The notes beneath the pieces were generated by a model that made no database searches, had not been told where the DNA came from, and was given only the letters and a program-made list of their open reading frames with translations. From a virus, in the IMG/VR virus record IMGVR_UViG_3300048908_000031: a DNA stretch of 49,693 bases, one strand, 5' to 3'. The position numbers were made by a program, and so were the translations under genes. Positions 679 to 12,706 of this stretch are shown here, in pieces (the stretch's first letter is position 1; the number at the start of each line of letters is the position of its first letter).

Positions 679-1284
679 TTATTGGCACGGCTCCCAGCCA
701 GGAACGCTAAGTCGAACCAAAGTTCTGGCTGTATCCATAGGCACTGGCAGTGATTCGTGAATCATCGTCACGTTGCCGGCATAGGCCACTCCAGCGAGCA
801 GGCGAACCTCGGAGAGCTGCGACAAATCCATCATCGAGCAGTCTCCACCCTCTCCTGGCATTTCATAGAACTCGCCGATCAATGCGCGGGATGCGCTGAC
901 ATCTGAAGCAAGAATCAAGGCTTCCGGCGCAGAAAAGTCGCACTGCGACCAGCCTGGGCTTGGATTCTGCCATTTTCCAGCATGGCCTCCACCTCCACCA
1001 TGTCGGCCTTTAGCAGCGATCCAATACCCGTCAATATGGGCGCCGGGGCGCCGGTGCGAAGCATTCGCCCTAACTACGCCTTGATCCACCATTAGATAGA
1101 TTGGGCCATCAGTATCCACGCCGACAAGCATCTGGTTGACAGTTTCCTGCCAGCGAGACAAGTCCGACGGCAGGCCTGTTTCAAGCCGGAATTCGCGCAT
1201 GTAGATGCGCTCCGCCAGGAACGACGGAAACTCAACCTTGCCAATTTCAGTAACGCGACTGACATTCTTGTTTGTGTAAGTCAT
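679..1284 (-). CDS. Putative Fe(II)/2-oxoglutarate dioxygenase-like protein
   Basis: 201 aa. HxD in AHIDG (res 83-85), a distal His in MIHES (res 176) and RxS in VRLSV (res 191-193). ATGA overlap with the recombinase stop. Confidence 0.4.
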   Translation of the reverse strand: MTYTNKNVSRVTEIGKVEFPSFLAERIYMREFRLETGLPSDLSRWQETVNQMLVGVDTDGPIYLMVDQGVVRANASHRRPGAHIDGYWIAAKGRHGGGGGHAGKWQNPSPGWSQCDFSAPEALILASDVSASRALIGEFYEMPGEGGDCSMMDLSQLSEVRLLAGVAYAGNVTMIHESLPVPMDTARTLVRLSVPGWEPCQ

Positions 1285-1901
1285 TTCGGATCCTCGTCAA
1301 TTTGTTTATCGCGAATCTTGGCTACTGTGGTCGGGCTGCACTCGGCCAATTCGGCCACCCGCTTCACCGATAGCGTCTTGTCGGTCATCAGCGCCTTCAC
1401 CCGTGCGTGCAGCAGCACGTCAACCGGCCTGCCCTTGTACTTCCCGGCCTTCTTGCTTTCTGCGATCCCTTGAGCCTGTCGGGTAGCTCGCGTCTCCCAG
1501 TCATCACGCGCCATCTGCATGGCAACCTTGAGCAGCATGTCCTGCACTGCATCGAGGATGATCCGGGCCATTCCGCCGGCCTGAATGTCGGACAGGTCGA
1601 CAATCCCCGGCACCACTAGCTTCGCCCCCTTCCCTTTGATCGCCGCAATGATCGCTTCTGCCTCTGGCAATGGCGCCCGCGTGATGCGATCCATCTTCTC
1701 TGCGATCACCACGTCACCCGGCTGCAAATCGGCAATCATCCGATTCAGTGCAGGCCGGTCAGCGCTGGTGCCGCTCATCTTGTCCTCGTAAATCCCCGCA
1801 ATGTAATAGCCTTCATCCATCGCCTTTCCTACCAATGCCCGCTGCCGCTCAAGATCCTGTTCGGCTGTGCTGACGCGCAGGTACACCCTGGCATTCTTCA
1901 T
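1281..1901 (-). CDS. Small serine recombinase (resolvase/invertase family) with C-terminal HTH
   Basis: The N-terminus VYLRVSTAEQDLERQ carries the catalytic Ser motif. Also present are the EKMDRITR motif and a C-terminal HTH, LSVKRVAELAECSPTTVAKI. 206 aa. Confidence 0.9.
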   Translation of the reverse strand: MKNARVYLRVSTAEQDLERQRALVGKAMDEGYYIAGIYEDKMSGTSADRPALNRMIADLQPGDVVIAEKMDRITRAPLPEAEAIIAAIKGKGAKLVVPGIVDLSDIQAGGMARIILDAVQDMLLKVAMQMARDDWETRATRQAQGIAESKKAGKYKGRPVDVLLHARVKALMTDKTLSVKRVAELAECSPTTVAKIRDKQIDEDPK

Positions 1902-2251: not shown

Positions 2252-2977
2252 TTAGATGGCCATTTCGGCCTGTGTTTCTCGCAGCCAGATGGGAGAGCTG
2301 TTGTGTGATTCGATCCTATCTGCGATCACATTGGCACGCTGGCCTGCCGTTGGCGGAACGTACATCCCGTAGCGCTTGATGCTGCCTCCGTTGACCGTTG
2401 CATTTGTAGAGTCAGCCGAAGTCAGCGGCAGGTGCTGGAAGATCTCCGGGTTAAGCATGCGCAAACCATGCAGTCGACAGATCGGCCGTCCGTGCTCATC
2501 GCAGATTTCATTCATCGCCGCGCCTATGCGCTTCCACCATGGCTTTGTGCCTGGCGATGACCACTGGCCCGAACTACCGATTGCAACTGTCGGCCATTCA
2601 GTGGCCAGACGCTGAAGACGCTCAAGCGATTCGTGCAAATGCCAGACCGGAACGCCGCGAAACTCCTTTGGCCACTCTGCCAACAGCGCGTCATTCGCCG
2701 CCTCGTTACCGTCGATCACGTCAGGGATAAGTGCCCAATCGAAGCCTGGATGCCTATGCCACTGTTCAACCCAGCGGGTATACCCGTCGACGTCCATTGG
2801 CACGCCCTTCGTCCAGGCCGAGAACGCACCGTTATCAAAAACAAATGACTGGCAGGCCTCGGCAACGATGCCCATGTCATCCTGGCGTGGGAACGGCACT
2901 AATGCATGGCGCCCCATGAGAAAGCTGGCCTTGCAGTTGAGCGTCCCACCGACTGGCGTACCGTGGTAATGGATCAT
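2252..2977 (-). CDS. TGT-superfamily TIM-barrel protein, DpdA-like putative DNA 7-deazaguanine transglycosylase
   Basis: 241 aa with alternating beta/alpha pattern. FVFDNGAFSAW resembles TGT LTDSGGFQ, LHGLRML resembles TGT LMGVG, and LTSADSTNA resembles the catalytic Asp strand. ATGA-coupled to the QueF-like gene. Confidence 0.45.
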   Translation of the reverse strand: MIHYHGTPVGGTLNCKASFLMGRHALVPFPRQDDMGIVAEACQSFVFDNGAFSAWTKGVPMDVDGYTRWVEQWHRHPGFDWALIPDVIDGNEAANDALLAEWPKEFRGVPVWHLHESLERLQRLATEWPTVAIGSSGQWSSPGTKPWWKRIGAAMNEICDEHGRPICRLHGLRMLNPEIFQHLPLTSADSTNATVNGGSIKRYGMYVPPTAGQRANVIADRIESHNSSPIWLRETQAEMAI

Positions 2978-3219
2978 GCCGCCAGCCTTACCGTTTCAAT
3001 CTCTACACCTTGGTGCGTGGCCGTTATCGTTTGATCTCCGCCCAGCGCCTCGGCCAGTCGATCAGCGATCTGCTCGTGCCATCCTTTCTTGATCAGTGCA
3101 GTGGCCGCCTTGATGTGCTCGACATGAATCATCGCCAGCGCCCTGATCTCAAGTCGATAGATGATCGCTTCTCCGTCGGACGGGCAGACAGCTGTAAAAG
3201 TGTGCCGGTAAGTATTCAT
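2974..3219 (-). CDS. Minimal QueF-like T-fold protein (81 aa)
   Basis: [20 protein letters not shown] resembles QueF [31 protein letters not shown] resembles VESKSLKLYL, and [12 protein letters not shown] resembles HEDCMNIIMNDL. The layout is beta-beta-alpha-alpha-beta-beta, and the N-terminal NADPH-binding part of QueF is absent. Confidence 0.45.
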   Translation of the reverse strand: [81 protein letters not shown]

Positions 3220-3258
3220 GGGAATTCCTTGCCCATAGCGGGCCGCTTGATTGATTGG

Positions 3259-3426
3259 TTATGCCGCAGGGGATCGCAGCCCATCCCGCTCAGCCCGCAC
3301 AATCGCATGGCGAATTCCTCGGCCAAGGTAGCGCTCGATCAGGTGCCAGGTGACGCCATCGGTGTGCAGCTCGTAGGCGAGCACGAGGGTTTCGCGGGTA
3401 TGCTTGAATTGGGCGCCGGGCTTCAT
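3259..3426 (-). CDS. Small hypothetical protein (55 aa), possible HTH
   Basis: The internal ATG forms an ATGA overlap with the upstream stop at 3423-3426. Product is MKPGAQFKHTRETLVLAYELHTDGVTWHLIERYLGRG... Confidence 0.45.
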   Translation of the reverse strand: MKPGAQFKHTRETLVLAYELHTDGVTWHLIERYLGRGIRHAIVRAERDGLRSPAA

Positions 3427-3968
3427 GGCTTCGTCTCGCCGGTATAGGTTCGCCACGGCATATTGCGGCCGCTGACCATGAAGCCCCAGTCGCCACGCCA
3501 CTTGCTGGTGATGAACAGAGTGAATGCGCCTTCTGGCTGCACGTAGTCGATGCGGTGGTACTCGCCGAACGTCAGTGTCGCGGTATCACCCGAACGGCGG
3601 ATGATTCGCACTCGTCGCGTTACCGACAGGATCGATCTGGTTCCTTGGCGAATGGCTGGCCGCTCTTCGGTGTACCCGCCGCGCAGGATGATGGTGCGCG
3701 CATTCCACGGGTGCGAGTGCAGGTCGCGGTCAGCATCCGGCCGCATGATGTGGTGAATTCGGATCGACCACGGGAACCACCAGAATTTCGCCTTGTGCGT
3801 CTCGCGGCTGTACGGGTTGAACAGCCACCAGCGGCCCATGTACATGTCGGAACCGTCGGCGGACATGATGTGCTGGTACGGGGTGCGCTGGGCTCGGGCG
3901 ATGAGCCAGTTGGCGATGGCTGGGCGGGCAAGCAGCTTGGCGAGCAGGCGCCAGAAGAGATTGATCAT
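3423..3968 (-). CDS. Cupin-fold metalloprotein-like hypothetical protein
   Basis: 181 aa from MINLFW. Cupin motif 1-like LHSHPWNARTIILRGGYTEE and motif 2-like GDTATLTFGEYHRID. ATGA overlaps at both ends. Confidence 0.5.
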   Translation of the reverse strand: MINLFWRLLAKLLARPAIANWLIARAQRTPYQHIMSADGSDMYMGRWWLFNPYSRETHKAKFWWFPWSIRIHHIMRPDADRDLHSHPWNARTIILRGGYTEERPAIRQGTRSILSVTRRVRIIRRSGDTATLTFGEYHRIDYVQPEGAFTLFITSKWRGDWGFMVSGRNMPWRTYTGETKP

Positions 3969-4324
3969 GATTTCACCAGTTCGGCAGGGACGCGCACGGT
4001 GTCGCCCAGCTTGTTGGCGACGATGGCGCGGCAGGCAGCAATGATCGGTGTTTCTGCATGCCATGCCGCCGTTGAATCTGTCCAAGCGCATGGGTTGCAG
4101 GCTTCATCGGAGTAGATGATGCTGACGCGATACCTAGCGATAAGCGGGCCGCACTGGTGCCAGTTGAACGATGGCATCCAAGGGGATTGCAGGCCAGGAC
4201 ACACGTTTATGCGCAACTCCTTGCCGAGAGAATCGTCAATCACGATTTCGCAGGCCAATGCCACTGCCCAATCCAGCGCCGGGCCAATCAGTTCAGCCGT
4301 CTTCACTTCGGTCGTCTTATCCAT
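3965..4324 (-). CDS. DUF2591 (NinX-like) family protein, paralogue 1
   Basis: TAELIGPALDWAVA at the N-terminus and CRAIVANKLGDTVRVPAELV at the C-terminus. The C-terminus is nearly identical to that of the 20321..20710 product. Confidence 0.7.
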   Translation of the reverse strand: MDKTTEVKTAELIGPALDWAVALACEIVIDDSLGKELRINVCPGLQSPWMPSFNWHQCGPLIARYRVSIIYSDEACNPCAWTDSTAAWHAETPIIAACRAIVANKLGDTVRVPAELVKS

Positions 4325-4500
4325 CACTCACCCTCCTTCTGTGCCGCCCGGTACGCCCGGACGATCTTGTAAATAGCCGCCTTGCTCAACTTGAATCGCT
4401 TGGCGGCCTCGTCGGCGCTGTACGTCTGGTAGCACTCGATAATCTTGGCGTTGCGTGCTGCGTTCTTTCCCGGTTTCGGCCCGGACTTGTGAGTTTTCAT
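4324..4500 (-). CDS. Small HTH DNA-binding protein (58 aa), not in the supplied ORF track
   Basis: Product is MKTHKSGPKPGKNAARNAKIIECYQTYSADEAAKRFKLSKAAIYKIVRAYRAAQKEGE. It starts directly after the pentapeptide gene stop and has a TGATG overlap with the next gene. Confidence 0.6.
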   Translation of the reverse strand: MKTHKSGPKPGKNAARNAKIIECYQTYSADEAAKRFKLSKAAIYKIVRAYRAAQKEGE

Positions 4501-5079
4501 TCAGTCGGCTCCTTTCTCGGGCGCCTCATAAGGAACGGCAGGCGATGCTTCGATGATGGTTTTCAGAATCGGTTTCCAGATCGACCACCAGGCTGATGCG
4601 CGCGAATCCATTTCCTGAATTTCTTCATCGCCGAACGCCCACCACTCAGTCAATGCATGGAACTGGCAACCGATCTGCATCTTGTCCGCTGTGTACGTCA
4701 CCGGCCAGAGATCGCACTGCACAGACTTGACCTGCGACAGGTTGCCGAAAGCGCCCCATATCGAAGCGGCGTAGCGCAGGTCGGCGTAGCGCAGGTCGGC
4801 GTAGCTCAGGTCGGCGGAGCTCAGGCTGGCGTAGCGCAGGTCGGCGTAGCGCAGGTCGGCGGAGCTCAGGTTGGCGGAGCGCAGGCTGGCGTAGCGCAGG
4901 TCGGCGTAGCGCAGGTCGGCGGAGCGCAGGCTGGCGTAGCGCAGGTCGGCGTAGCGCAGGTCGGCGGAGCTCAGGTTGGCGGAGCTCAGGTTGGCGCGTT
5001 CGCCGCCCTCTTCATCGTTTAGCCATGCGCGGTGCTTCCGAATGATCTCGTCAAGTTGTTCAGTGGTGAAAGTTCGCAT
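4501..5079 (-). CDS. Pentapeptide-repeat protein: about 15 A(D/N)L(R/S)(Y/S) repeats plus a unique ~90-aa C-terminal domain
   Basis: [30 protein letters not shown]... is a canonical pentapeptide periodicity. 192 aa with RBS GGAG. Confidence 0.9.
4766..4995. repeat. About 15 tandem copies of a 15-bp unit (gcgtagcgcaggtcg / gcggagctcaggttg variants) inside the pentapeptide gene
   Basis: Near-identical 15-bp units with higher-order 45-60 bp periodicity are directly visible at 4766-4995. Confidence 0.9.
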
Positions 5080-5107
5080 TGGTCTTACTCCATTGATTTA
5101 TGTTTGG

Positions 5108-5998
5108 TTAAAGTGCTGCGAGGGTCCGCTCATACAGGTCATCATGCTCGGCGGACATCGGTGATTTGGTGTTCTGGCGCTCGGCGACTAGCACGCCGCC
5201 CGACAGGAAGCCGGTGACGATCGGTGCGACGGTCTTGGCCTGCGTCACCAGAAACAGGTGGCCGTCGTTGATCACGTGCAGCTGCGAGCGCGGAATCAGG
5301 TTGGCCATCATGCGCATGTTGACCAGCGGAATCAGTGGGTCGTCATTGCCGGCCAGTACCAGCGTCGGCTGCTTGATCTTGTGCAGCCAGTGCGCTGAGG
5401 TCCATGCCCAAACCGCCATGGCTTGATAGTAATAACCGCGCCCGCTGGGCGATTTCATCTTGCTGGTGTGCGCGGTGGCCAGCGACTTGTCGTAACGGAA
5501 CGCGCCGCCGTAGATGTCCGGGGCGATGCGTGCACCGTGCTCGGGGTCGGTGTAGCGGCGTGGCGAGGCCATCAGGCTCAGCACCTTGAGTGATGGGGGC
5601 ACCATGGCGACCCCGCAGGAGGTGGCAGCAAGGATAAGTCGTCTGCACCGGTGCGGCTGGTCATAGGCGAACTGCTGGGCCAGAAAGCCTCCCCACGACA
5701 CGCCGATCACGTTGACTTGGTCATAGCCCATCACGTCCAGCATCGTGGCGACGGTCTTGGCCATGCCGCGAAAGGTGTACGGCAGCAGCGGAGCCGGCGA
5801 ACCTCCGACACCGGGCACGTCGAAAGCGATGATTTCTTGGTCAGGGTCCAGCTCATTGGTGAACGGGATGACCAAGTCCAGCGATGCGCCGATGCCGTTG
5901 AACACCACCAGCGGGGTCAGGTGCGATTTACCTGGGCGAACCGCCGTCCTGATTGACAGCCCATCCACTTGAACAGTGCGGAAAACAAAAGCCTTCAT
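5108..5998 (-). CDS. phaZ: Intracellular medium-chain-length polyhydroxyalkanoate depolymerase homologue (alpha/beta hydrolase)
   Basis: Colinear with Pseudomonas PhaZ as recalled: FRTVQVDGLSIRTAVRPGKSHLTPLVVFNGIGA, IAFDVPGVGGS, lipase box GVSWGG, MASPRRY, QPTLVLAGNDDPLIPL and DGHLFL. Start at MKAFVF with RBS GGAG. Confidence 0.85.
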   Translation of the reverse strand: MKAFVFRTVQVDGLSIRTAVRPGKSHLTPLVVFNGIGASLDLVIPFTNELDPDQEIIAFDVPGVGGSPAPLLPYTFRGMAKTVATMLDVMGYDQVNVIGVSWGGFLAQQFAYDQPHRCRRLILAATSCGVAMVPPSLKVLSLMASPRRYTDPEHGARIAPDIYGGAFRYDKSLATAHTSKMKSPSGRGYYYQAMAVWAWTSAHWLHKIKQPTLVLAGNDDPLIPLVNMRMMANLIPRSQLHVINDGHLFLVTQAKTVAPIVTGFLSGGVLVAERQNTKSPMSAEHDDLYERTLAAL

Positions 5999-6015
5999 TT
6001 CGTCGTGCTCCGGTT

Positions 6016-6033
6016 GGTCCTTATTGATGGACT
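6016..6033. promoter_or_regulatory. Operator-like inverted repeat, site G (minus strand reads AGTCCatcaataaGGACC)
   Basis: GGTCCttattgatGGACT lies immediately downstream of the putative -10 of the phaZ promoter. Confidence 0.55.
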
Positions 6034-6034
6034 C

Positions 6035-6063
6035 ACTATGCGCTGACAATCCGGTTAGGTCAA
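6035..6063 (-). promoter_or_regulatory. Candidate sigma70 promoter of the phaZ cassette (TTGACC-17-CATAGT)
   Basis: The minus strand reads TTGACC (6058-6063), a 17-nt spacer, then CATAGT (6035-6040). It sits between a terminator and the phaZ start. Confidence 0.45.
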
Positions 6064-6084
6064 CAAACAAGTCAACGATTTATG

Positions 6085-6110
6085 CAAAAAGAAACCCGGC
6101 GAACCGGGCG
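6085..6110 (-). terminator. Rho-independent terminator-like hairpin inside the early operon, upstream of the phaZ cassette
   Basis: Minus-strand RNA has a CCCGG-UUCG-CCGGG stem-loop followed by UUUCUUUUU. Confidence 0.5.
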
Positions 6111-6123
6111 ATGTTTGTAGTCG

Positions 6124-6420
6124 TCAGATCGAAAGAAGATCGGTCTTACGGTAGCACTCAGCCGGAAACCCGTACTCGGCACAGCTGCACGCCTCGCCGC
6201 AGCGCTCATCGCGCGATTCAATGCGCATCAAGCCATGCTTGACGGCCATGTCTTGGATGTCGCCGCCGTCAAAGCTGCCGCCCTCGAAGGCGGCGCTGAT
6301 CATTTCGTTGGCGAAGTCCTGTAACGCGTACAGACTGGCAGTTACTCGGTCGAAGTCTTCGGCGCGGACGCATTTGACACCGCGAGCATCATCCGAAAAG
6401 AATTTCTGAACATCACTCAT
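6124..6420 (-). CDS. Hypothetical protein (98 aa) with a Cys-rich C-terminus
   Basis: Start MSDVQKFF with RBS GAGGGA; ends ...ERCGEACSCAEYGFPAECYRK. Confidence 0.55.
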   Translation of the reverse strand: MSDVQKFFSDDARGVKCVRAEDFDRVTASLYALQDFANEMISAAFEGGSFDGGDIQDMAVKHGLMRIESRDERCGEACSCAEYGFPAECYRKTDLLSI

Positions 6421-6565
6421 CACTGATCCCTCTGGTATTTGGCCTGTCGCATCTTGGAGCAGGCCGAGTGGTTGCCGGATGCGCGGACCTTTCCGCACAC
6501 GTCACAGCAGTTTGATATGGCAAGGCGCGGCATGGGTGGGCGCTGGTTGCGGCGCCTGCGTGGGG

Positions 6566-8053
6566 TCATGCGACCTCCTGGTCTCCGATTTCTTTAAGCA
6601 GTCGTCGGCCAATCCAGCGAACTACGGGAACGGCTTTGCTATTTCCGATCGCCTTGTAGCGGGGGCCGTCCGGGCACTCGCTTGCTGGCTTGCCGCGCCA
6701 GGGGATGAGGGTGTAATCGTCGGCCATACCCTGTAGGCGTTCGCACTCGACTGGAGTGAGGCGGCGCACAGAGCTCGTATGCGACACAATGTTGGGGCCC
6801 AGAGCTGAGTCCGTGTTGTCGACCTGTTTGCCGTAGTTGCAGGTCAGCGTCTGGGCCACTTCTCGACATGCAACAATCGGCTGACCGCGCCCGGTGCCAT
6901 CCTCGCTGCCGTCGAAACCCTCAGCCTTCAGCGTGTGGGTGATTTCTCCAGTGATGCACACAGCTACCTGGCCGCCGGCGTTTGCATGGCTGCCTGAGTG
7001 ATTCATTGCCCGCAGAGTGGGTGCAATTACCCCGGCATCGGCGCCGTGATCCTTGCAGGAGAAAGCCAGCACTGCATTTTCCTGGCCGTTGTTTCTGCCC
7101 AGAGCGTGCGCTTGGTCAATGCTTACACAGGGGTCTTGCGTACCGTGTACTACAAAGGCTTCGCTTTCGAAGTCCATCCTTCCGCTGGCGCTGGCGCACG
7201 CATTGCGTGCTGGAGCCACCTCAATTGGGCCGCTGGTGTTGTTCCCCCCGAACACCAGAAGGGATTCTCTCGACTCATGGTCACCATATGGGTTGGTCGT
7301 TAAAGCTGCAGTTACGTGAGGGATGTCGTCGGTGCTGTATCCGCCGTTCTTTCGAGCGCCGCCAGTAAGGGTGCCGGCAACATCTTTCCCCTGGCCTCGG
7401 CGCGGCGCAGTATCCCGGCGCACGCCTTCGCGCTCAAAAAGTACCTCGGTGGGATCGAACCCGTCTCGAGCACTTGCGACAACGAACACACGACGGCGTC
7501 GTTGGGCCAGGCCGAAATATTGGGCGTCCAAGATCCGCCATGCGATTGTTCTTTGGGGTCCATACACACAACCAGCGTCCGGCCACCTTTTCCCTGAAGG
7601 CTGCAGTTCGCAGTCTTCCCCAGCAAGCGCGCCAAGAAAGCATCCGAAGGCGTTGCCTTTGTCGGAAAGGACGCCGGGGACGTTTTCCCAGACAACGACA
7701 GAGGCTGGCAGTCCTCGACTGGCTCGAACATAGTCATTTGCATCTGCAAGCTCCACGTATTTGATGGTGAGGGCGCCGCGGGGGTCGGCAAGTCCTTCGC
7801 GCATGCCGGCCACACTGAATGCCTGGCAGGGGGTTCCGCCGACCAGAACGTCCGGCGCCTCGATCTTCCCAGCAAGGACCATGGTCGCAAGCCGTGTCAT
7901 GTCGCCCAGGTTCGGCGTTTGCGGGTAGTGGTGCGCCAGTACGGCGCTGGGGAATGGATCGATTTCAGCGAACCATGCGGCCTTCATTCCGAGCGGGTGC
8001 CAAGCTACCGTAGCAGCCTCTATTCCACTGCAAATGCTTCCGTAGGTGATCAT
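6566..8053 (-). CDS. DNA (cytosine-5)-methyltransferase
   Basis: Motifs in order: I (YGSICSGIEA), IV (GGTPCQAFSVAG), VI (WENVPG), VIII (QRRRRVFVV), IX (RRLTPVECERLQG) and X (AIGNS). The variable region between VIII and IX is long. Confidence 0.95.
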   Translation of the reverse strand: MITYGSICSGIEAATVAWHPLGMKAAWFAEIDPFPSAVLAHHYPQTPNLGDMTRLATMVLAGKIEAPDVLVGGTPCQAFSVAGMREGLADPRGALTIKYVELADANDYVRASRGLPASVVVWENVPGVLSDKGNAFGCFLGALAGEDCELQPSGKRWPDAGCVYGPQRTIAWRILDAQYFGLAQRRRRVFVVASARDGFDPTEVLFEREGVRRDTAPRRGQGKDVAGTLTGGARKNGGYSTDDIPHVTAALTTNPYGDHESRESLLVFGGNNTSGPIEVAPARNACASASGRMDFESEAFVVHGTQDPCVSIDQAHALGRNNGQENAVLAFSCKDHGADAGVIAPTLRAMNHSGSHANAGGQVAVCITGEITHTLKAEGFDGSEDGTGRGQPIVACREVAQTLTCNYGKQVDNTDSALGPNIVSHTSSVRRLTPVECERLQGMADDYTLIPWRGKPASECPDGPRYKAIGNSKAVPVVRWIGRRLLKEIGDQEVA

Positions 8054-9308: not shown

Positions 9309-9989
9309 TTACTTCTTCAGCGCCTTGACCAGGTACGGGTCGACGTCAGCCTGGCGCAGCAGCCATAACTTGTAATCGGCAGGGATGTCGGCGATTTTCG
9401 ATCCGGCGTGCTTGCCGAAGCGGATCACAGTCGGAATTCGCGCCTCTTCTGAGATTTCCCACAACCTTTCCCAGCTTCCCACTTCCTGGCCAGGCTCAAA
9501 GATCAGACGATTGACGATCGCGATCAGCAGACGGCGGCAGTTGTGCACGTCGTCGAGTGCGGCGTGAGCGTTCTTTAGCAGCTCGCGCGCCTGGTCCCGG
9601 TAGTGCAGGTAGATCATCGCCGATTGGCTGTGCGAGTCGGCATCCGGCCAGAGCGAACGGCTCAGCGCCTGGGTGCAGATGCGTTTCACGTCAGGCTGAC
9701 CGATCACGCTCCAGTCATAGTCGACGTTGTGGCCGATGATGTAGGTGGTGCCGGCGGGAAGTGCGAACTCGGTGTGCGGCGGGCAGTCGACCAGATCTTC
9801 GTCGAGGATATGTGCGGTAGCCAGGGCGCTAAGCTCAATCGGCTTGTTTGGCTTGTAGCGCTGAAGGAATTGCTCAGCGACCGTCAGCGTCTGGATGCTT
9901 TCCAGTCGAAGCCATGCCGCCTCAGTTGGCTGCGGCTCTTTCAGGCCGGTTGTTTCGAAATCGAGAATAATTGCTGTCATGTAGGTCAT
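9309..9989 (-). CDS. DnaQ-like 3'-5' exonuclease with a DUF3820-like C-terminal domain
   Basis: Exo I ILDFETTGL, Exo II GHNVDYDWSV, Exo III HAALDDVHNC. C-terminal FGKHAGSKIADIPADYKLWLL. Confidence 0.85.
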   Translation of the reverse strand: MTYMTAIILDFETTGLKEPQPTEAAWLRLESIQTLTVAEQFLQRYKPNKPIELSALATAHILDEDLVDCPPHTEFALPAGTTYIIGHNVDYDWSVIGQPDVKRICTQALSRSLWPDADSHSQSAMIYLHYRDQARELLKNAHAALDDVHNCRRLLIAIVNRLIFEPGQEVGSWERLWEISEEARIPTVIRFGKHAGSKIADIPADYKLWLLRQADVDPYLVKALKK

Positions 9990-10058
9990 CCGTTTTCAGG
10001 TGTGGTGGGTTGCCGGCAGCTGGGGCGCTGCCGGGTATTGCTCGGGGCGGATTATCGA

Positions 10059-10703
10059 TCAATCAAATGGAATGTCATCGAAGTCCGGCGCGTCGTCCAT
10101 TGGGCCGGTCTGGTAGTTCGTCGACTGGACCTGTTGGTTGCGCAGCTTGCGTACCGGGTTCTTCGCAATGAACGCCATAAAGCCGCCGAGCGACGAAGGC
10201 TTGGTCTGTTTGGACAGGATTTCAGCGGCCATCAGTTCGGTGCTGTACTCGAACGGGGCGGCAATGATCATTCTCTCGCCGATTTCACCACTCTGCTTCT
10301 GGTATTCCTCCTGCTGGAGAACCAGGCCGAGCTTCTTTCCTTTCAGCTCAATGGCGCACTCTTTCTGCTTGGGCACCATGATCTTCTGGTCGTAGTCGTA
10401 AAGCTCGATGGTTTCCTGTTTCCAGTTCAGCGACTTTACCTTGGCGCAAGTCATCAGCGCATTGAGCTGCTTGTACCCGGCCAGGGTTTCCCCGCTGCCG
10501 TTGTGCGTGTACAGGTTGAGTGGCCCGCATTCCTGGCCGTTGTCACCGATAAACATCAGGTTCACGCTTTCGGTGCCTTTCGGGTTTTTCTCGTAGAACG
10601 CCGCAGTAACGGTGCCCATGTACTTGCCGGTTTCCGTGATGCGCTTGCCGCCAGTGTTCGCTTCTTTAGCTGCCTGGGTGTCAAGGTTGTATGCGCGTGC
10701 CAT
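10059..10703 (-). CDS. Phage ssDNA-binding protein (DUF669-like) with an acidic SSB-type tail
   Basis: The C-terminus is DDAPDFDDIPFD. The gene lies directly downstream of a Sak4-like ATPase. Confidence 0.7.
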   Translation of the reverse strand: MARAYNLDTQAAKEANTGGKRITETGKYMGTVTAAFYEKNPKGTESVNLMFIGDNGQECGPLNLYTHNGSGETLAGYKQLNALMTCAKVKSLNWKQETIELYDYDQKIMVPKQKECAIELKGKKLGLVLQQEEYQKQSGEIGERMIIAAPFEYSTELMAAEILSKQTKPSSLGGFMAFIAKNPVRKLRNQQVQSTNYQTGPMDDAPDFDDIPFD

Positions 10704-10784
10704 ATAGTGCCTCCAAGGGCCTTAGTTTCGGTTGTGTTGGTGCTGCTGGGTTGGCTCGACCCATTAACTGTGTCGGGCGGTGAC

Positions 10785-11435
10785 TCAGGCCTGAACAGTT
10801 AGGCCGTAAAACTCGCTTATCGCCTCATCGACCTTCGCCAGGTCATTGTCAATACTTCTGTCTTCGAACATGCCAATTGGGCTCTTGCAGCAGTCCTGGC
10901 CGTTCGTTTGCGTGCTGAACTGGTAATCGCCACTGGTGACCTCAGTCCTGAGTACGATCGTAAAGAACCCCTCAGGCACCAGCGTACTGTCGACGAGCTT
11001 GCCTACCGTTTTCATTCGGACATTCCCAAAGTCGTCGGTCTGCGTGTGGGCCAGGATGTAAACCCGGCGATGGTCTGCCAGGTCACCAGCTGCGTTGAAG
11101 ATGTTCCAAGCGTTTTTGCCGATGTCGGAGAACTTCGTGTAGCCAGTTTCACTGCTCCGGGTCATCAGCTCATTGACCATCACCGCTTGGTAGTCATCGA
11201 TCACGACCACATCATGGGGTGAGTTGCGCATGATCTTCTCAATCATGGCCGGGTTGTCGGTTCGGATGACGTTGCCCGCATCCTTCATGGTTGCTCGGAC
11301 CTTCCAGCCTGGCGCCTTGAACGGCAATGGCTTCTTGATGCACTGGATGACCAGGGTTTTCTTCGGATCAAGGTTCCGAAGGCTCGTTGATTTACCGCTG
11401 CCAGAGTTGCCTAAAATCAGAGTCGCGATGCTCAT
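10785..11435 (-). CDS. Sak4-like RecA-fold ATPase (single-strand annealing/recombination)
   Basis: Walker A LILGNSGSGKST and Walker B-like VVVIDDY. The context is DUF1351, then this ATPase, then DUF669 SSB, then the exonuclease. Confidence 0.75.
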   Translation of the reverse strand: MSIATLILGNSGSGKSTSLRNLDPKKTLVIQCIKKPLPFKAPGWKVRATMKDAGNVIRTDNPAMIEKIMRNSPHDVVVIDDYQAVMVNELMTRSSETGYTKFSDIGKNAWNIFNAAGDLADHRRVYILAHTQTDDFGNVRMKTVGKLVDSTLVPEGFFTIVLRTEVTSGDYQFSTQTNGQDCCKSPIGMFEDRSIDNDLAKVDEAISEFYGLTVQA

Positions 11436-11444
11436 TTGTCTGCC

Positions 11445-11588
11445 TCAGATTGGTTGCCTATCCCATTCCCGCTCAATGCGGGCGGCTTCGTCTTCATATT
11501 CCCGGCGCTGCTCACCCGTGAACTGCTCGGGCGAGAAGGCGCCGACCGTGGCCCAGTCGAGCTGGGCGGTCATGCGTGGCGAGTTCAT
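11445..11588 (-). CDS. Small hypothetical protein (42-47 aa), not in the ORF track
   Basis: Product is MNSPRMTAQLDWATVGAFSPEQFTGEQRREYEDEAARIEREWDRQPI. It fills the gap between two genes on the same strand. Confidence 0.35.
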   Translation of the reverse strand: MNSPRMTAQLDWATVGAFSPEQFTGEQRREYEDEAARIEREWDRQPI

Positions 11589-11596
11589 GCTGAGCC

Positions 11597-12706
11597 TCAG
11601 TAGGCGATGGTCACGCCGGGGATGACGCGGCTTGCGATCAGAACGACTGCCTGCTTTGCACAGGCCTCAGTCATACCGCCCTTGATGAATGCCTCCATGG
11701 CCTCCCGGTTGATCTTGCCCCGGTGGGCTTTGTCGGCTTCGCGCAGGTTCTGCTGGCGAATGATTTCGTCGGCTGCGGCCTGTTGGCGGTCCACTTCATC
11801 CTGTTTGGCCTTCTCAACTGCCGCTTTCTGGCTTTCGATAGCGGCCAGTCGGTCGCGCTCGGCCTTCTGCTCTGCCTCTACCTTTTCGCGCTTTGCCAGT
11901 TCGGCTTTTCGCTCGGATTCGGCGGCGACCAGCTTCAGGTCGTTCTCGCGCTTCTCGGCAGCAGCTTGCTCGTCCTTGACACGCTGAGCTTCTGCATCAC
12001 GTTCACGCTGAGCCTTTTCTTCAGCTTCACGGGTGGCGCGTTCGGCTGCCTCGCGGGCAATGCGGTCTTCGTGGTCCTTCTTGTCACGGTCTTCCTTCTC
12101 TTTGCGAAGGCGTGCCAGCTCCAGCTGCTCAGCTTCGTACTGCTGGCGCGTGGTCAATGCGGCGTTCAATGTTACCAGCGCTGATTCCTTGGCCAGCGCG
12201 GCGTCAACCTGGAACTCTGCCCACTTGTCCGCGATGATTACCCACTCAGCCGAAGCGATGCGGGATTCAAGTTCCGCAACCGTCAGCCCATCCAAGTCCG
12301 CGGCCAACGCTGCAATCTTGGCGATGTCGTCCTTGATGGACGCAATCCGTCGTTCTTCCGCCGCCTCCCAGTCGTCCAACGGCTTGCGAACTTCCTTCTG
12401 CCACAGCTCCAGGGTGTCCCACACGCGCTTACGCTCGGCGTCGATGCGCTTCGGCACTTCCTTCTGCTGGGCCGACAGCTCCTTGCCCACGGCATCCAGC
12501 GCCGTCTTCGACTTGGCGACCTTGTGGGCCATTGAGGCGTACAGGTCGCGACCCTTCTTGGTGGTCAGGTCCGGCAGCACCGACAGGAATTTGTCGACCT
12601 CGGCGCGGATCTGGCCCAGCCACGGGTCAAGCCCGTTCGCAGCGCTGTACACGGTCAGGGCGGTTTCTTTCGGCGGGACGGCCGCCAGTTCAGTAGTTGC
12701 AGACAT
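11597..12706 (-). CDS. DUF1351-like coiled-coil protein of the recombination module
   Basis: 369 aa with a long E/K/A/R-rich coiled-coil centre; lies upstream of the Sak4-like ATPase. Confidence 0.6.
   Translation of the reverse strand: MSATTELAAVPPKETALTVYSAANGLDPWLGQIRAEVDKFLSVLPDLTTKKGRDLYASMAHKVAKSKTALDAVGKELSAQQKEVPKRIDAERKRVWDTLELWQKEVRKPLDDWEAAEERRIASIKDDIAKIAALAADLDGLTVAELESRIASAEWVIIADKWAEFQVDAALAKESALVTLNAALTTRQQYEAEQLELARLRKEKEDRDKKDHEDRIAREAAERATREAEEKAQRERDAEAQRVKDEQAAAEKRENDLKLVAAESERKAELAKREKVEAEQKAERDRLAAIESQKAAVEKAKQDEVDRQQAAADEIIRQQNLREADKAHRGKINREAMEAFIKGGMTEACAKQAVVLIASRVIPGVTIAY

Follow-up and report, generated by a model that had tools for sequence, protein, structure and literature searches.

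What is the role of a short pentapeptide-repeat protein whose gene, in a phage genome, is followed without a gap by that of a tiny, probably DNA-binding protein? The question is raised by IMG/VR virus record IMGVR_UViG_3300048908_000031, a stretch of 49,693 nucleotides (hereafter the window), whose minus strand encodes a 192-residue repeat protein (4501..5079) and, directly after it, a 58-residue protein with a probable helix-turn-helix (HTH; 4324..4500). A preliminary description took the two for a DNA-mimicking anti-defence gene with an Aca-type autoregulator. Our analysis leads to a different picture. By sequence comparison the repeat protein is an ordinary representative of a phage and prophage family that is very large but essentially unstudied. 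This family is defined by a conserved C-terminal domain and includes a Vibrio phage protein with a reported role in evading host immunity. We tentatively read it as an early-expressed counter-defence or host-interaction protein that would bind a host protein, its C-terminal domain and N-terminal cap being constant and its solenoid adaptable.

Architecture of the repeat protein

The protein matches Pfam Pentapeptide (PF00805) with 75.2 bits (cut-off 20.2; E = 2.7e-21), and three parts can be distinguished, all on the minus strand. The N-terminal cap (residues 1–28; 4996..5079) contains a helix at residues 6–20 and the conserved H16, W19, L20 and G26. It is followed by the pentapeptide solenoid (4765..4995), with 15 canonical 15-bp units and part of a degenerate 16th, and by an α/β domain of 87 residues, seven of them Trp (the C-domain; 4501..4764, stop codon included). 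The canonical units include ADLRY eight times, ANLSS three times and ASLRS twice; together with the degenerate AASIW they amount to about four coils. Tandem Repeats Finder reports a 15-bp unit in 15.3 copies with 88% matches. An AlphaFold2 model computed with 42 homologs (predicted local distance difference test, pLDDT, 93.4; predicted template modelling score, pTM, 0.83) shows the cap helix at 6–20, the solenoid and a C-terminal arrangement of four strands and three helices. Compared with the PDB by Foldseek, the full model retrieves pentapeptide solenoids only (synthetic β1, Np275/276, HetL, MfpA and Qnr). In the model the solenoid is a right-handed quadrilateral β-helix, and the earlier count of some 15 canonical pentapeptides in roughly four coils of such a helix is borne out by unit number, Pfam match and predicted fold alike.

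The C-terminal domain defines a large phage family

The C-terminal part had been described as a unique Trp-rich domain of about 90 residues. Size and Trp content are correct, but the domain is widespread and conserved rather than unique. Homologs of the 192-residue protein number 3748 in a collection of 5.8 billion proteins, many of them encoded on contigs of 35–50 kb or by genomes of Pseudomonas, Azotobacter and Achromobacter. With the C-domain alone, an exhaustive phmmer search of 1.84 billion representatives found 1385 clusters at 50% identity (E ≤ 1e-3), whereas a word-indexed homolog search with the same query gave just 14 proteins, mostly truncated. The best 150 matches listed all have the domain at their C-terminus or close to it. 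The part N-terminal to it is nearly always a pentapeptide tract, of 1–26 units.

The family as used here comprises phage proteins that combine pentapeptides with this C-domain, including gp60 of Vibrio phage 24 and PHROGs 7713 and 31567. Its alignment falls into the same three parts: a conserved cap, a solenoid of 3.4 to 23.4 units and a strongly conserved C-domain of about 75–87 residues. Eleven C-domain residues are invariant in the alignment (G112, Y129, T130, G137, C138, W146, F149, I154, M157, A161 and W165) and His141 is nearly so; the resulting motif, YT...IGCQxH...EWW.F...I..MD..A..WW..WKP, is present in the 192-residue protein. Cultured carriers include the Rheinheimera Barba phages, Ralstonia phage DU_RP_II, Caulobacter phage RapA, Pseudomonas phage tabernarius, and Acinetobacter and Yersinia phages. 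Rare exceptions to the common architecture occur: in one protein (P0214) the C-domain follows a repeat-free, Cys-rich N-terminal part of the Zn-ribbon type, and in another the solenoid and C-domain unit is tandemly duplicated (P0272). Two more carry N-terminal extensions of a Cys-pair or Lar-like type (P0050 and P0145; the Lar-like one is that of P0050, with PF14354 below threshold).

Modelled in isolation (pLDDT 86), the C-domain has no fold match in the PDB (best E = 1.9); its sequence matches nothing in the PDB or Pfam, and in the viral structure library BFVD it retrieves phage pentapeptide proteins only. On these comparisons the C-domain is the family's defining, conserved and so far undescribed element, without a known structural relative.

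A family member is linked to escape from abortive infection

Our literature search found nothing on this protein family beyond a passage on gp60 in a preprint on integron-borne defence (bioRxiv 10.1101/2024.07.02.601686). The preprint describes Sucellos, an abortive-infection system consisting of SclA and the pore-forming SclB. Vibrio phage 24 mutants that escape Sucellos carry mutations in gene 24_60, which encodes a pentapeptide-repeat protein, and deletion of 24_60 renders the phage far more sensitive to the system. The deletion mutant could be obtained and propagated, its large plating defect being reported with Sucellos present. The repeated region of 24_60 is described in the same preprint as difficult to assemble.

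In the deposited genome gp60 is SBVc24_0060 (KJ572844.2, 12900–13322; locus L097), a protein of 140 residues with a cap, eight repeats and the C-terminal part RAGCQSYTIEEWFKFTKSDIENMDGYKAL. A hidden Markov model (HMM) of the C-domain was built from 241 family members with the repeats left out. Run against the 706 six-frame open reading frames (ORFs) of Vibrio phage 24, it has gp60 as its sole match (33.4 bits, E = 7.6e-10), and BLASTP of the whole 192-residue protein against gp60 gives E = 5e-15. Since both the domain-only model and BLASTP match, gp60 is assigned to the family as a divergent member. A counter-defence role for the window's protein is plausible by analogy, because the C-domain model picks out the very protein whose deletion sensitizes its phage to Sucellos. 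In this respect the general idea of the preliminary description, counter-defence by an early phage gene, gains support.

The published escape positions N110, Y112R and N115D fit the GenBank gp60 at one offset only, +70 residues or 14 repeats, and there N110, Y112 and N115 fall on outward-facing repeat residues ('ANLYG ANLRG'). Because these positions need 14 additional pentapeptides, the deposited gp60 gene has probably collapsed by that number. If the offset is right, we infer that the solenoid surface matters in anti-Sucellos activity.

Repeat number differs among assemblies of close relatives

Related metagenome contigs with an identical HTH protein encode repeat proteins of 182, 192, 197, 222 and 227 residues, corresponding to 13, 15, 16, 21 and 22 units, all in frame. 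One of these loci, L086, has 21 units against the window's 15, although all flanking segments tested, from methyltransferase to recombinase and including cap and C-domain, show 100% identity between the two. Within the window, the eight ADLRY units share an identical 15 nucleotides, as do the three ANLSS units and both ASLRS units, and units differ solely at the codons of outward-facing residues. At the nucleotide level this pattern of codon identity reads as the signature of recent gain, loss and exchange of units.

The 192- and 222-residue forms each recur in independent samples, which mildly favours real variation. With 230–320 nucleotides of 15-bp units, however, the tracts are longer than a short read, and many contigs break within them. 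Because short-read metagenome assemblies often break or collapse in such tracts, the length differences may be artefacts; that between L086 and the window may reflect real hypervariability or faulty assembly. Many short-read contigs (L091, L092, L094 and L095 among them) and several deposited Barba phage genomes start or end inside the pentapeptide tract. Assemblies thus break systematically at these genes, and the family has many truncated entries in the databases. The diversity of the family is probably under-recorded, as its genes break short-read assemblies and the GenBank gp60 is apparently 14 repeats short.

DNA mimicry by the solenoid appears unlikely

The proposal that the protein mimics B-DNA in the manner of Qnr and MfpA came with the expectation of a β-helix with a negative surface. 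The β-helix is predicted, but the solenoid surface is not negative, as judged from residue counts (which are balanced) rather than from computed electrostatics. The solenoid (residues 29–105) contains nine acidic and ten basic residues, net +1, and on each face the outward residues balance Asp against Arg beside a ladder of Tyr (one face reads DRY DRY DRY DRY). The whole protein, with 14.6% acidic and 10.9% basic residues, has a net charge of −7 and an isoelectric point of 4.9; this net charge resides in the cap and the C-domain. Across 41 relatives the charge of the solenoid runs from +6 to −16 (the latter in P0104), with a median of −1.

Repeat number argues in the same direction. Some full-length members have two or three repeats only (P0238, P0265 and P0269), and fewer than four repeats cannot imitate duplex DNA because they make up less than one coil. 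The NCBIfam models penta_rpt_Qnr and MfpA score 22.7 bits (cut-off 240) and 23.8 bits (cut-off 360) respectively, and the repeat tract is unbroken, with no Qnr-type loops. The charge contrast with Qnr and MfpA draws on published descriptions of those proteins, not on their sequences (PMC10886550, PMC7261183). In the single test that our search turned up, two other pentapeptide proteins, McbG and QnrB, failed to relieve inhibition by BREX (PMC7261183). With a solenoid at +1, an unconstrained repeat number in the family and Qnr and MfpA models far below their cut-offs, the claim of a B-DNA mimic of this type finds little support; DNA mimicry appears unlikely both for the 192-residue protein and as the family's common mechanism, though individual members may use it. 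A β-helical pentapeptide fold should not by itself be read as DNA mimicry.

The HTH gene is one link of a longer gene string

The junction between the two genes reads GAC-TGA-ATG-AAA, so that the ATG of the HTH gene abuts the stop codon of the repeat gene with zero gap on the same strand; a downstream gene at that stop had been described correctly. The 58-residue protein has a basic tail and a probable HTH. HTH_28, HTH_23 and, for its C-terminal part, Mor all score slightly under their Pfam cut-offs, phrog_532 ('late transcriptional activator') matches at 3.8e-5, and the PDB holds no meaningful relative (best E = 0.48, a mitoribosomal protein). The gene described as encoding a tiny HTH protein is thus real, its HTH identity only probable given the sub-threshold scores.

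This protein is specific to the window's phage lineage. Five proteins in the collection of 5.8 billion match it, the window's own included, and a homolog lies 3′ of the repeat gene in 3 of 82 family loci, all of the same lineage. On 21 contigs the order of repeat gene, HTH gene, NinX gene and phrog_4786 gene is constant. At another locus (L096), an 88% identical HTH protein (P0279) is encoded directly after a phaZ-type gene and no repeat gene is present. Downstream genes in the 71 other loci are heterogeneous, with any HTH signature in about 5–8 by inspection; likewise, no conserved neighbour gene of the repeat gene was found in 80 IMG/VR loci. In Ralstonia phage DU_RP_II the product of the next gene after the repeat gene resembles the 58-residue protein by eye, but it was rejected as a homolog (BLASTP E = 3.5).

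Upstream of the repeat gene, the spacer to the phaZ-like gene is 28 nucleotides long and contains a GGAG ribosome-binding site, leaving no room for a promoter or operator. Downstream, every junction as far as a 55-residue ORF abuts or overlaps (TGA-ATG, TGATG, ATGA, ATGA). The HTH gene runs into a NinX-like gene (119 residues; 3965..4324, minus strand; PF10765, 3.7e-12), whose ATG overlaps the HTH stop codon by one nucleotide (TGATG). The next gene encodes a phrog_4786 protein (181 residues; 3423..3968, minus strand) and starts in an ATGA overlap with the NinX stop, and the 55-residue ORF (3259..3426, minus strand), again joined by ATGA, closes the series. No terminator was found 3′ of the HTH gene, where genes continue without a gap into this series. 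Given abutting or overlapping junctions throughout and the 28-nucleotide spacer, the 'pair' amounts to two links of a five-gene string, which by its layout is translationally coupled and is transcribed from 5′ of phaZ or from still farther upstream.

The acr-aca architecture that had been proposed therefore finds no footing: pairing is seen in 3 of 82 loci, the HTH protein has four other close relatives, one of which occurs without a repeat gene, and the HTH gene sits in mid-string, with no separate promoter between phaZ and the repeat gene. The most fitting description of the HTH protein is a small DNA-binding protein specific to its lineage; on this distribution it is not an autoregulator of Aca type that serves the repeat gene. 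More generally, conserved pairing should be checked before a small HTH gene beside such a candidate is taken for an Aca.

The phaZ block and its upstream edge

The gene preceding the repeat gene (5108..5998, minus strand) encodes a PhaZ-like poly(3-hydroxyalkanoate) depolymerase of 296 residues from an ATG at 5998, with GGAG 5′ of the ATG. TIGR02240 matches at 410.3 bits (cut-off 250.6) and Abhydrolase_1 at 6e-34. The gene may be an auxiliary metabolic gene that mobilizes host carbon stores. Among 50,697 phage records, clear homologs were seen only in the Ralstonia jumbo phages RP12 and RP31 (48% identity).

A terminator-like hairpin (6094..6109, minus strand; CGCCCGGTTCGCCGGG then TTTCTTTTTG, with a T-run) lies 3′ of a 124-residue ORF and forms the upstream edge of the phaZ block. 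It is kept in L004, L086 and L087, including where the gene upstream of it differs. A candidate σ70-like promoter follows (6035..6063, minus strand; TTGACC-17 nt-CATAGT), with a second TTGACT just before it. The candidate matches the consensus at 9 of 12 positions, and such sites occur in the region at chance number; its sequence is near-invariant across relatives. No inverted repeats were found around it. The leader 5′ of phaZ (5999–6123, minus strand) holds the direct repeat TTGACT-N6-TTGACC and is near-invariant, whereas the coding regions of the same relatives differ by 2–24%; it may be a regulatory site. Because hairpin, promoter-like site and leader are near-invariant despite a differing upstream gene, this edge behaves as a module boundary. 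Of the terminator- and promoter-delimited cassette headed by phaZ that had been proposed, the identity of phaZ and a marked upstream edge are confirmed; the terminator after the HTH gene is lacking.

Genomic surroundings

The window derives from a temperate, Pseudomonas-like phage with a GC content of about 60%; among the genes examined, none was a tyrosine integrase. Minus-strand early genes run leftward from about 15 kb, and plus-strand genes start at about 16 kb. The leftward operon begins with phrog_1376, a Sak4-like annealing protein, a single-stranded DNA-binding protein (SSB), a DnaQ-type exonuclease and small ORFs. It continues with a 495-residue C5 DNA methyltransferase, the 124-residue ORF, the hairpin and promoter-like site, phaZ and the repeat gene. 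The HTH, NinX-like and phrog_4786 genes, the 55-residue ORF, an 81-residue ORF, a DpdA-like gene (phrog_887) and a small serine recombinase complete it.

The four genes from phrog_1376 (369 residues) to the DnaQ-type exonuclease form a recombination module (9309–12706, minus strand). Relatives of the repeat gene are located upstream of ERF/RecT and YqaJ genes, which in other phages with this protein family stand in place of the phrog_1376/Sak4 module. The C5 DNA-cytosine methyltransferase (6566–8053, minus strand) lies just upstream of the phaZ cassette, a place that L087 and L088 fill with unrelated genes; with the methyltransferase swapped in relatives, the region is therefore a mosaic of exchangeable accessory modules.

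At the far side, the DpdA-like gene (phrog_887, 'queuine tRNA-ribosyltransferase', 1.5e-70) and the 81-residue ORF (phrog_37496) occupy 2252–3219 (minus strand) and are joined by an ATGA overlap; their matches suggest a DNA modification module of the 7-deazaguanine type. This module and the 55-residue ORF are absent from the close relatives L087 and L004, and a 111-residue gene stands in the module's place in the annotated relatives L087, L088 and L091. The far end of the operon (679–1901, minus strand) holds the small serine recombinase/invertase (206 residues, phrog_125), which overlaps a 201-residue phrog_8970 gene. PADLOC returned no significant match for any of eight scanned proteins encoded at 2252–6498, the best being mad1 for the HTH protein (E = 0.0015, marginal), and so lends no support to a known defence system here.

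What the repeat protein may do

In the reading that we tentatively prefer, the protein would bind a host protein and not imitate DNA. The C-domain with the cap would supply a constant function, such as oligomerization or contact with an effector, while the outward-facing residues and the length of the solenoid would form an adjustable binding surface that is reshaped by gain, loss and exchange of 15-bp units. The repeat gene lies in the early leftward operon, between the C5 DNA methyltransferase and the DpdA-like gene and downstream of the Sak4, SSB and exonuclease genes. Several points weigh against this interpretation. The terminator and promoter-like elements 5′ of phaZ would also fit a moron expressed in the lysogen, and the conservation of Cys138 may point to enzymatic activity instead of binding. 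Functional evidence by analogy comes solely from a distant homolog (32% identity) in one preprint; that homolog matches only positions 16–60 of the 78 in the C-domain HMM and has Tyr in place of His141. Finally, some or all of the differences in repeat number may have arisen in assembly.

The protein might instead serve host takeover unrelated to defence, binding and modulating a housekeeping protein of, for example, replication, recombination or division so that phage replication is favoured. Such a role, which we consider unlikely, would suit a gene of the early operon that stands beside recombination and replication genes, has no fixed partner and belongs to a family found in virulent-type and temperate phages alike. 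However, gp60, the single homolog to have been tested, shows a defence-dependent phenotype and its deletion mutant propagates; fast-changing surface residues are also more readily explained by an arms race than by a housekeeping target that is itself conserved. It is distinctly unlikely that phaZ, the repeat gene and the genes after it form a moron, transcribed in the prophage from its own promoter and used for superinfection exclusion, defence or access to carbon stores. A conserved hairpin and a promoter-like site placed exactly at the mosaic junction are what such a unit would show, and phaZ does resemble a host-derived metabolic gene. Yet the promoter match is weak and of a kind found at chance rate in the region, PADLOC finds nothing significant among the eight proteins, and the family extends to phages that show no hint of lysogeny, among them phage 24 and the Barba phages of 80 kb.

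That the C-domain is a small enzyme built around Cys138, with the solenoid a mere spacer or targeting rod, seems to us very unlikely. The invariance of Cys138 and near-invariance of His141 in the IGCQxH motif, and the presence of the domain behind non-pentapeptide N-termini, as in P0214, speak for it; against it, the domain has only about 75 residues and resembles no known enzyme in fold or sequence, gp60 has Tyr in place of His141, and the escape mutations published for gp60 apparently map to the repeats and not to the C-domain. We give least credence to the solenoid as a B-DNA decoy of the Qnr/MfpA type, directed at restriction, gyrase-type or other DNA-binding defence proteins and paired with an Aca-type HTH autoregulator. 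The protein does share the fold of MfpA and Qnr, is mildly acidic as a whole (−7, isoelectric point 4.9) and is abutted by an HTH gene, and a few family solenoids are strongly acidic, that of P0104 at −16 being an example. These features are outweighed by a solenoid of net +1 with Asp/Arg pairs on every face and by a family that spans from 1–3 to 26 repeats, the shortest under one coil. Scores about tenfold under the Qnr and MfpA cut-offs, the lack of Qnr-type loops and the failure of the bona fide DNA-mimic-like McbG and QnrB to affect BREX (PMC7261183) add to this. The HTH gene, for its part, does not regularly accompany the repeat gene and does not close its unit, and no promoter or operator lies ahead of the repeat gene.

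Returning to the preferred counter-defence reading, we speculate, with low confidence, that the family as a whole is a widespread phage counter-defence class whose solenoid works as a contingency-type locus, the C-domain providing the constant function. Slippage and exchange among identical 15-bp units would change solenoid length and outward residues within a phage population and so let phages keep pace with abortive-infection sensors such as Sucellos. If this holds, variation in repeat number and surface would be a simple, testable route of phage adaptation to host immunity; thousands of phage and prophage genes annotated as 'pentapeptide repeat-containing protein' would gain a function, and the new domain of about 80 residues would be a searchable marker for them.

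Comparison with known systems

With acr-aca operons, in which the gene of an HTH autorepressor comes after an anti-CRISPR gene, the locus shares the placement of a small HTH gene, which is co-oriented with the candidate counter-defence gene and lies directly 3′ of it. It departs from them in having no promoter or inverted-repeat operator before the repeat gene, where the gap is 28 nucleotides, and in its HTH gene, which is not terminal but followed by three further coupled genes. The HTH family is tiny, confined to one lineage and able to occur without a repeat gene, whereas Aca families are widespread beside varied upstream genes.

Qnr, MfpA, McbG and AlbG, which protect topoisomerases and are proposed DNA mimics, have in common with the 192-residue protein the right-handed quadrilateral β-helix of A(D/N)LXX units. 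The window's protein differs from them in its charge-neutral solenoid, the absence of Qnr-type loops and its location in a phage. Where they have a short dimerization helix it has an 87-residue α/β C-domain, and solenoid length is unconstrained across its family. The DNA-mimic anti-restriction proteins Ocr and ArdA are, as is envisaged for the repeat protein, early phage or plasmid proteins proposed to disable host defence through binding; their folds are unrelated to that of the 192-residue protein. Ocr and ArdA are extremely acidic, in contrast to the 14.6% acidic and 10.9% basic residues of the window's protein.

The closest counterpart is gp60. It comes from a different type of phage and a different host, is about 32% identical over the aligned part, carries Tyr at the position of the near-invariant His141 and has a diverged last helix, which limits its match to HMM positions 16–60. 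Like the 192-residue protein, it has a cap, a pentapeptide solenoid and the C-terminal core GCQ..EEW.F...I..MD..A, and its repeat tract is repetitive at the DNA level and assembles poorly. Both are encoded in the early region near DNA methyltransferases, two methyltransferase genes preceding that of gp60.

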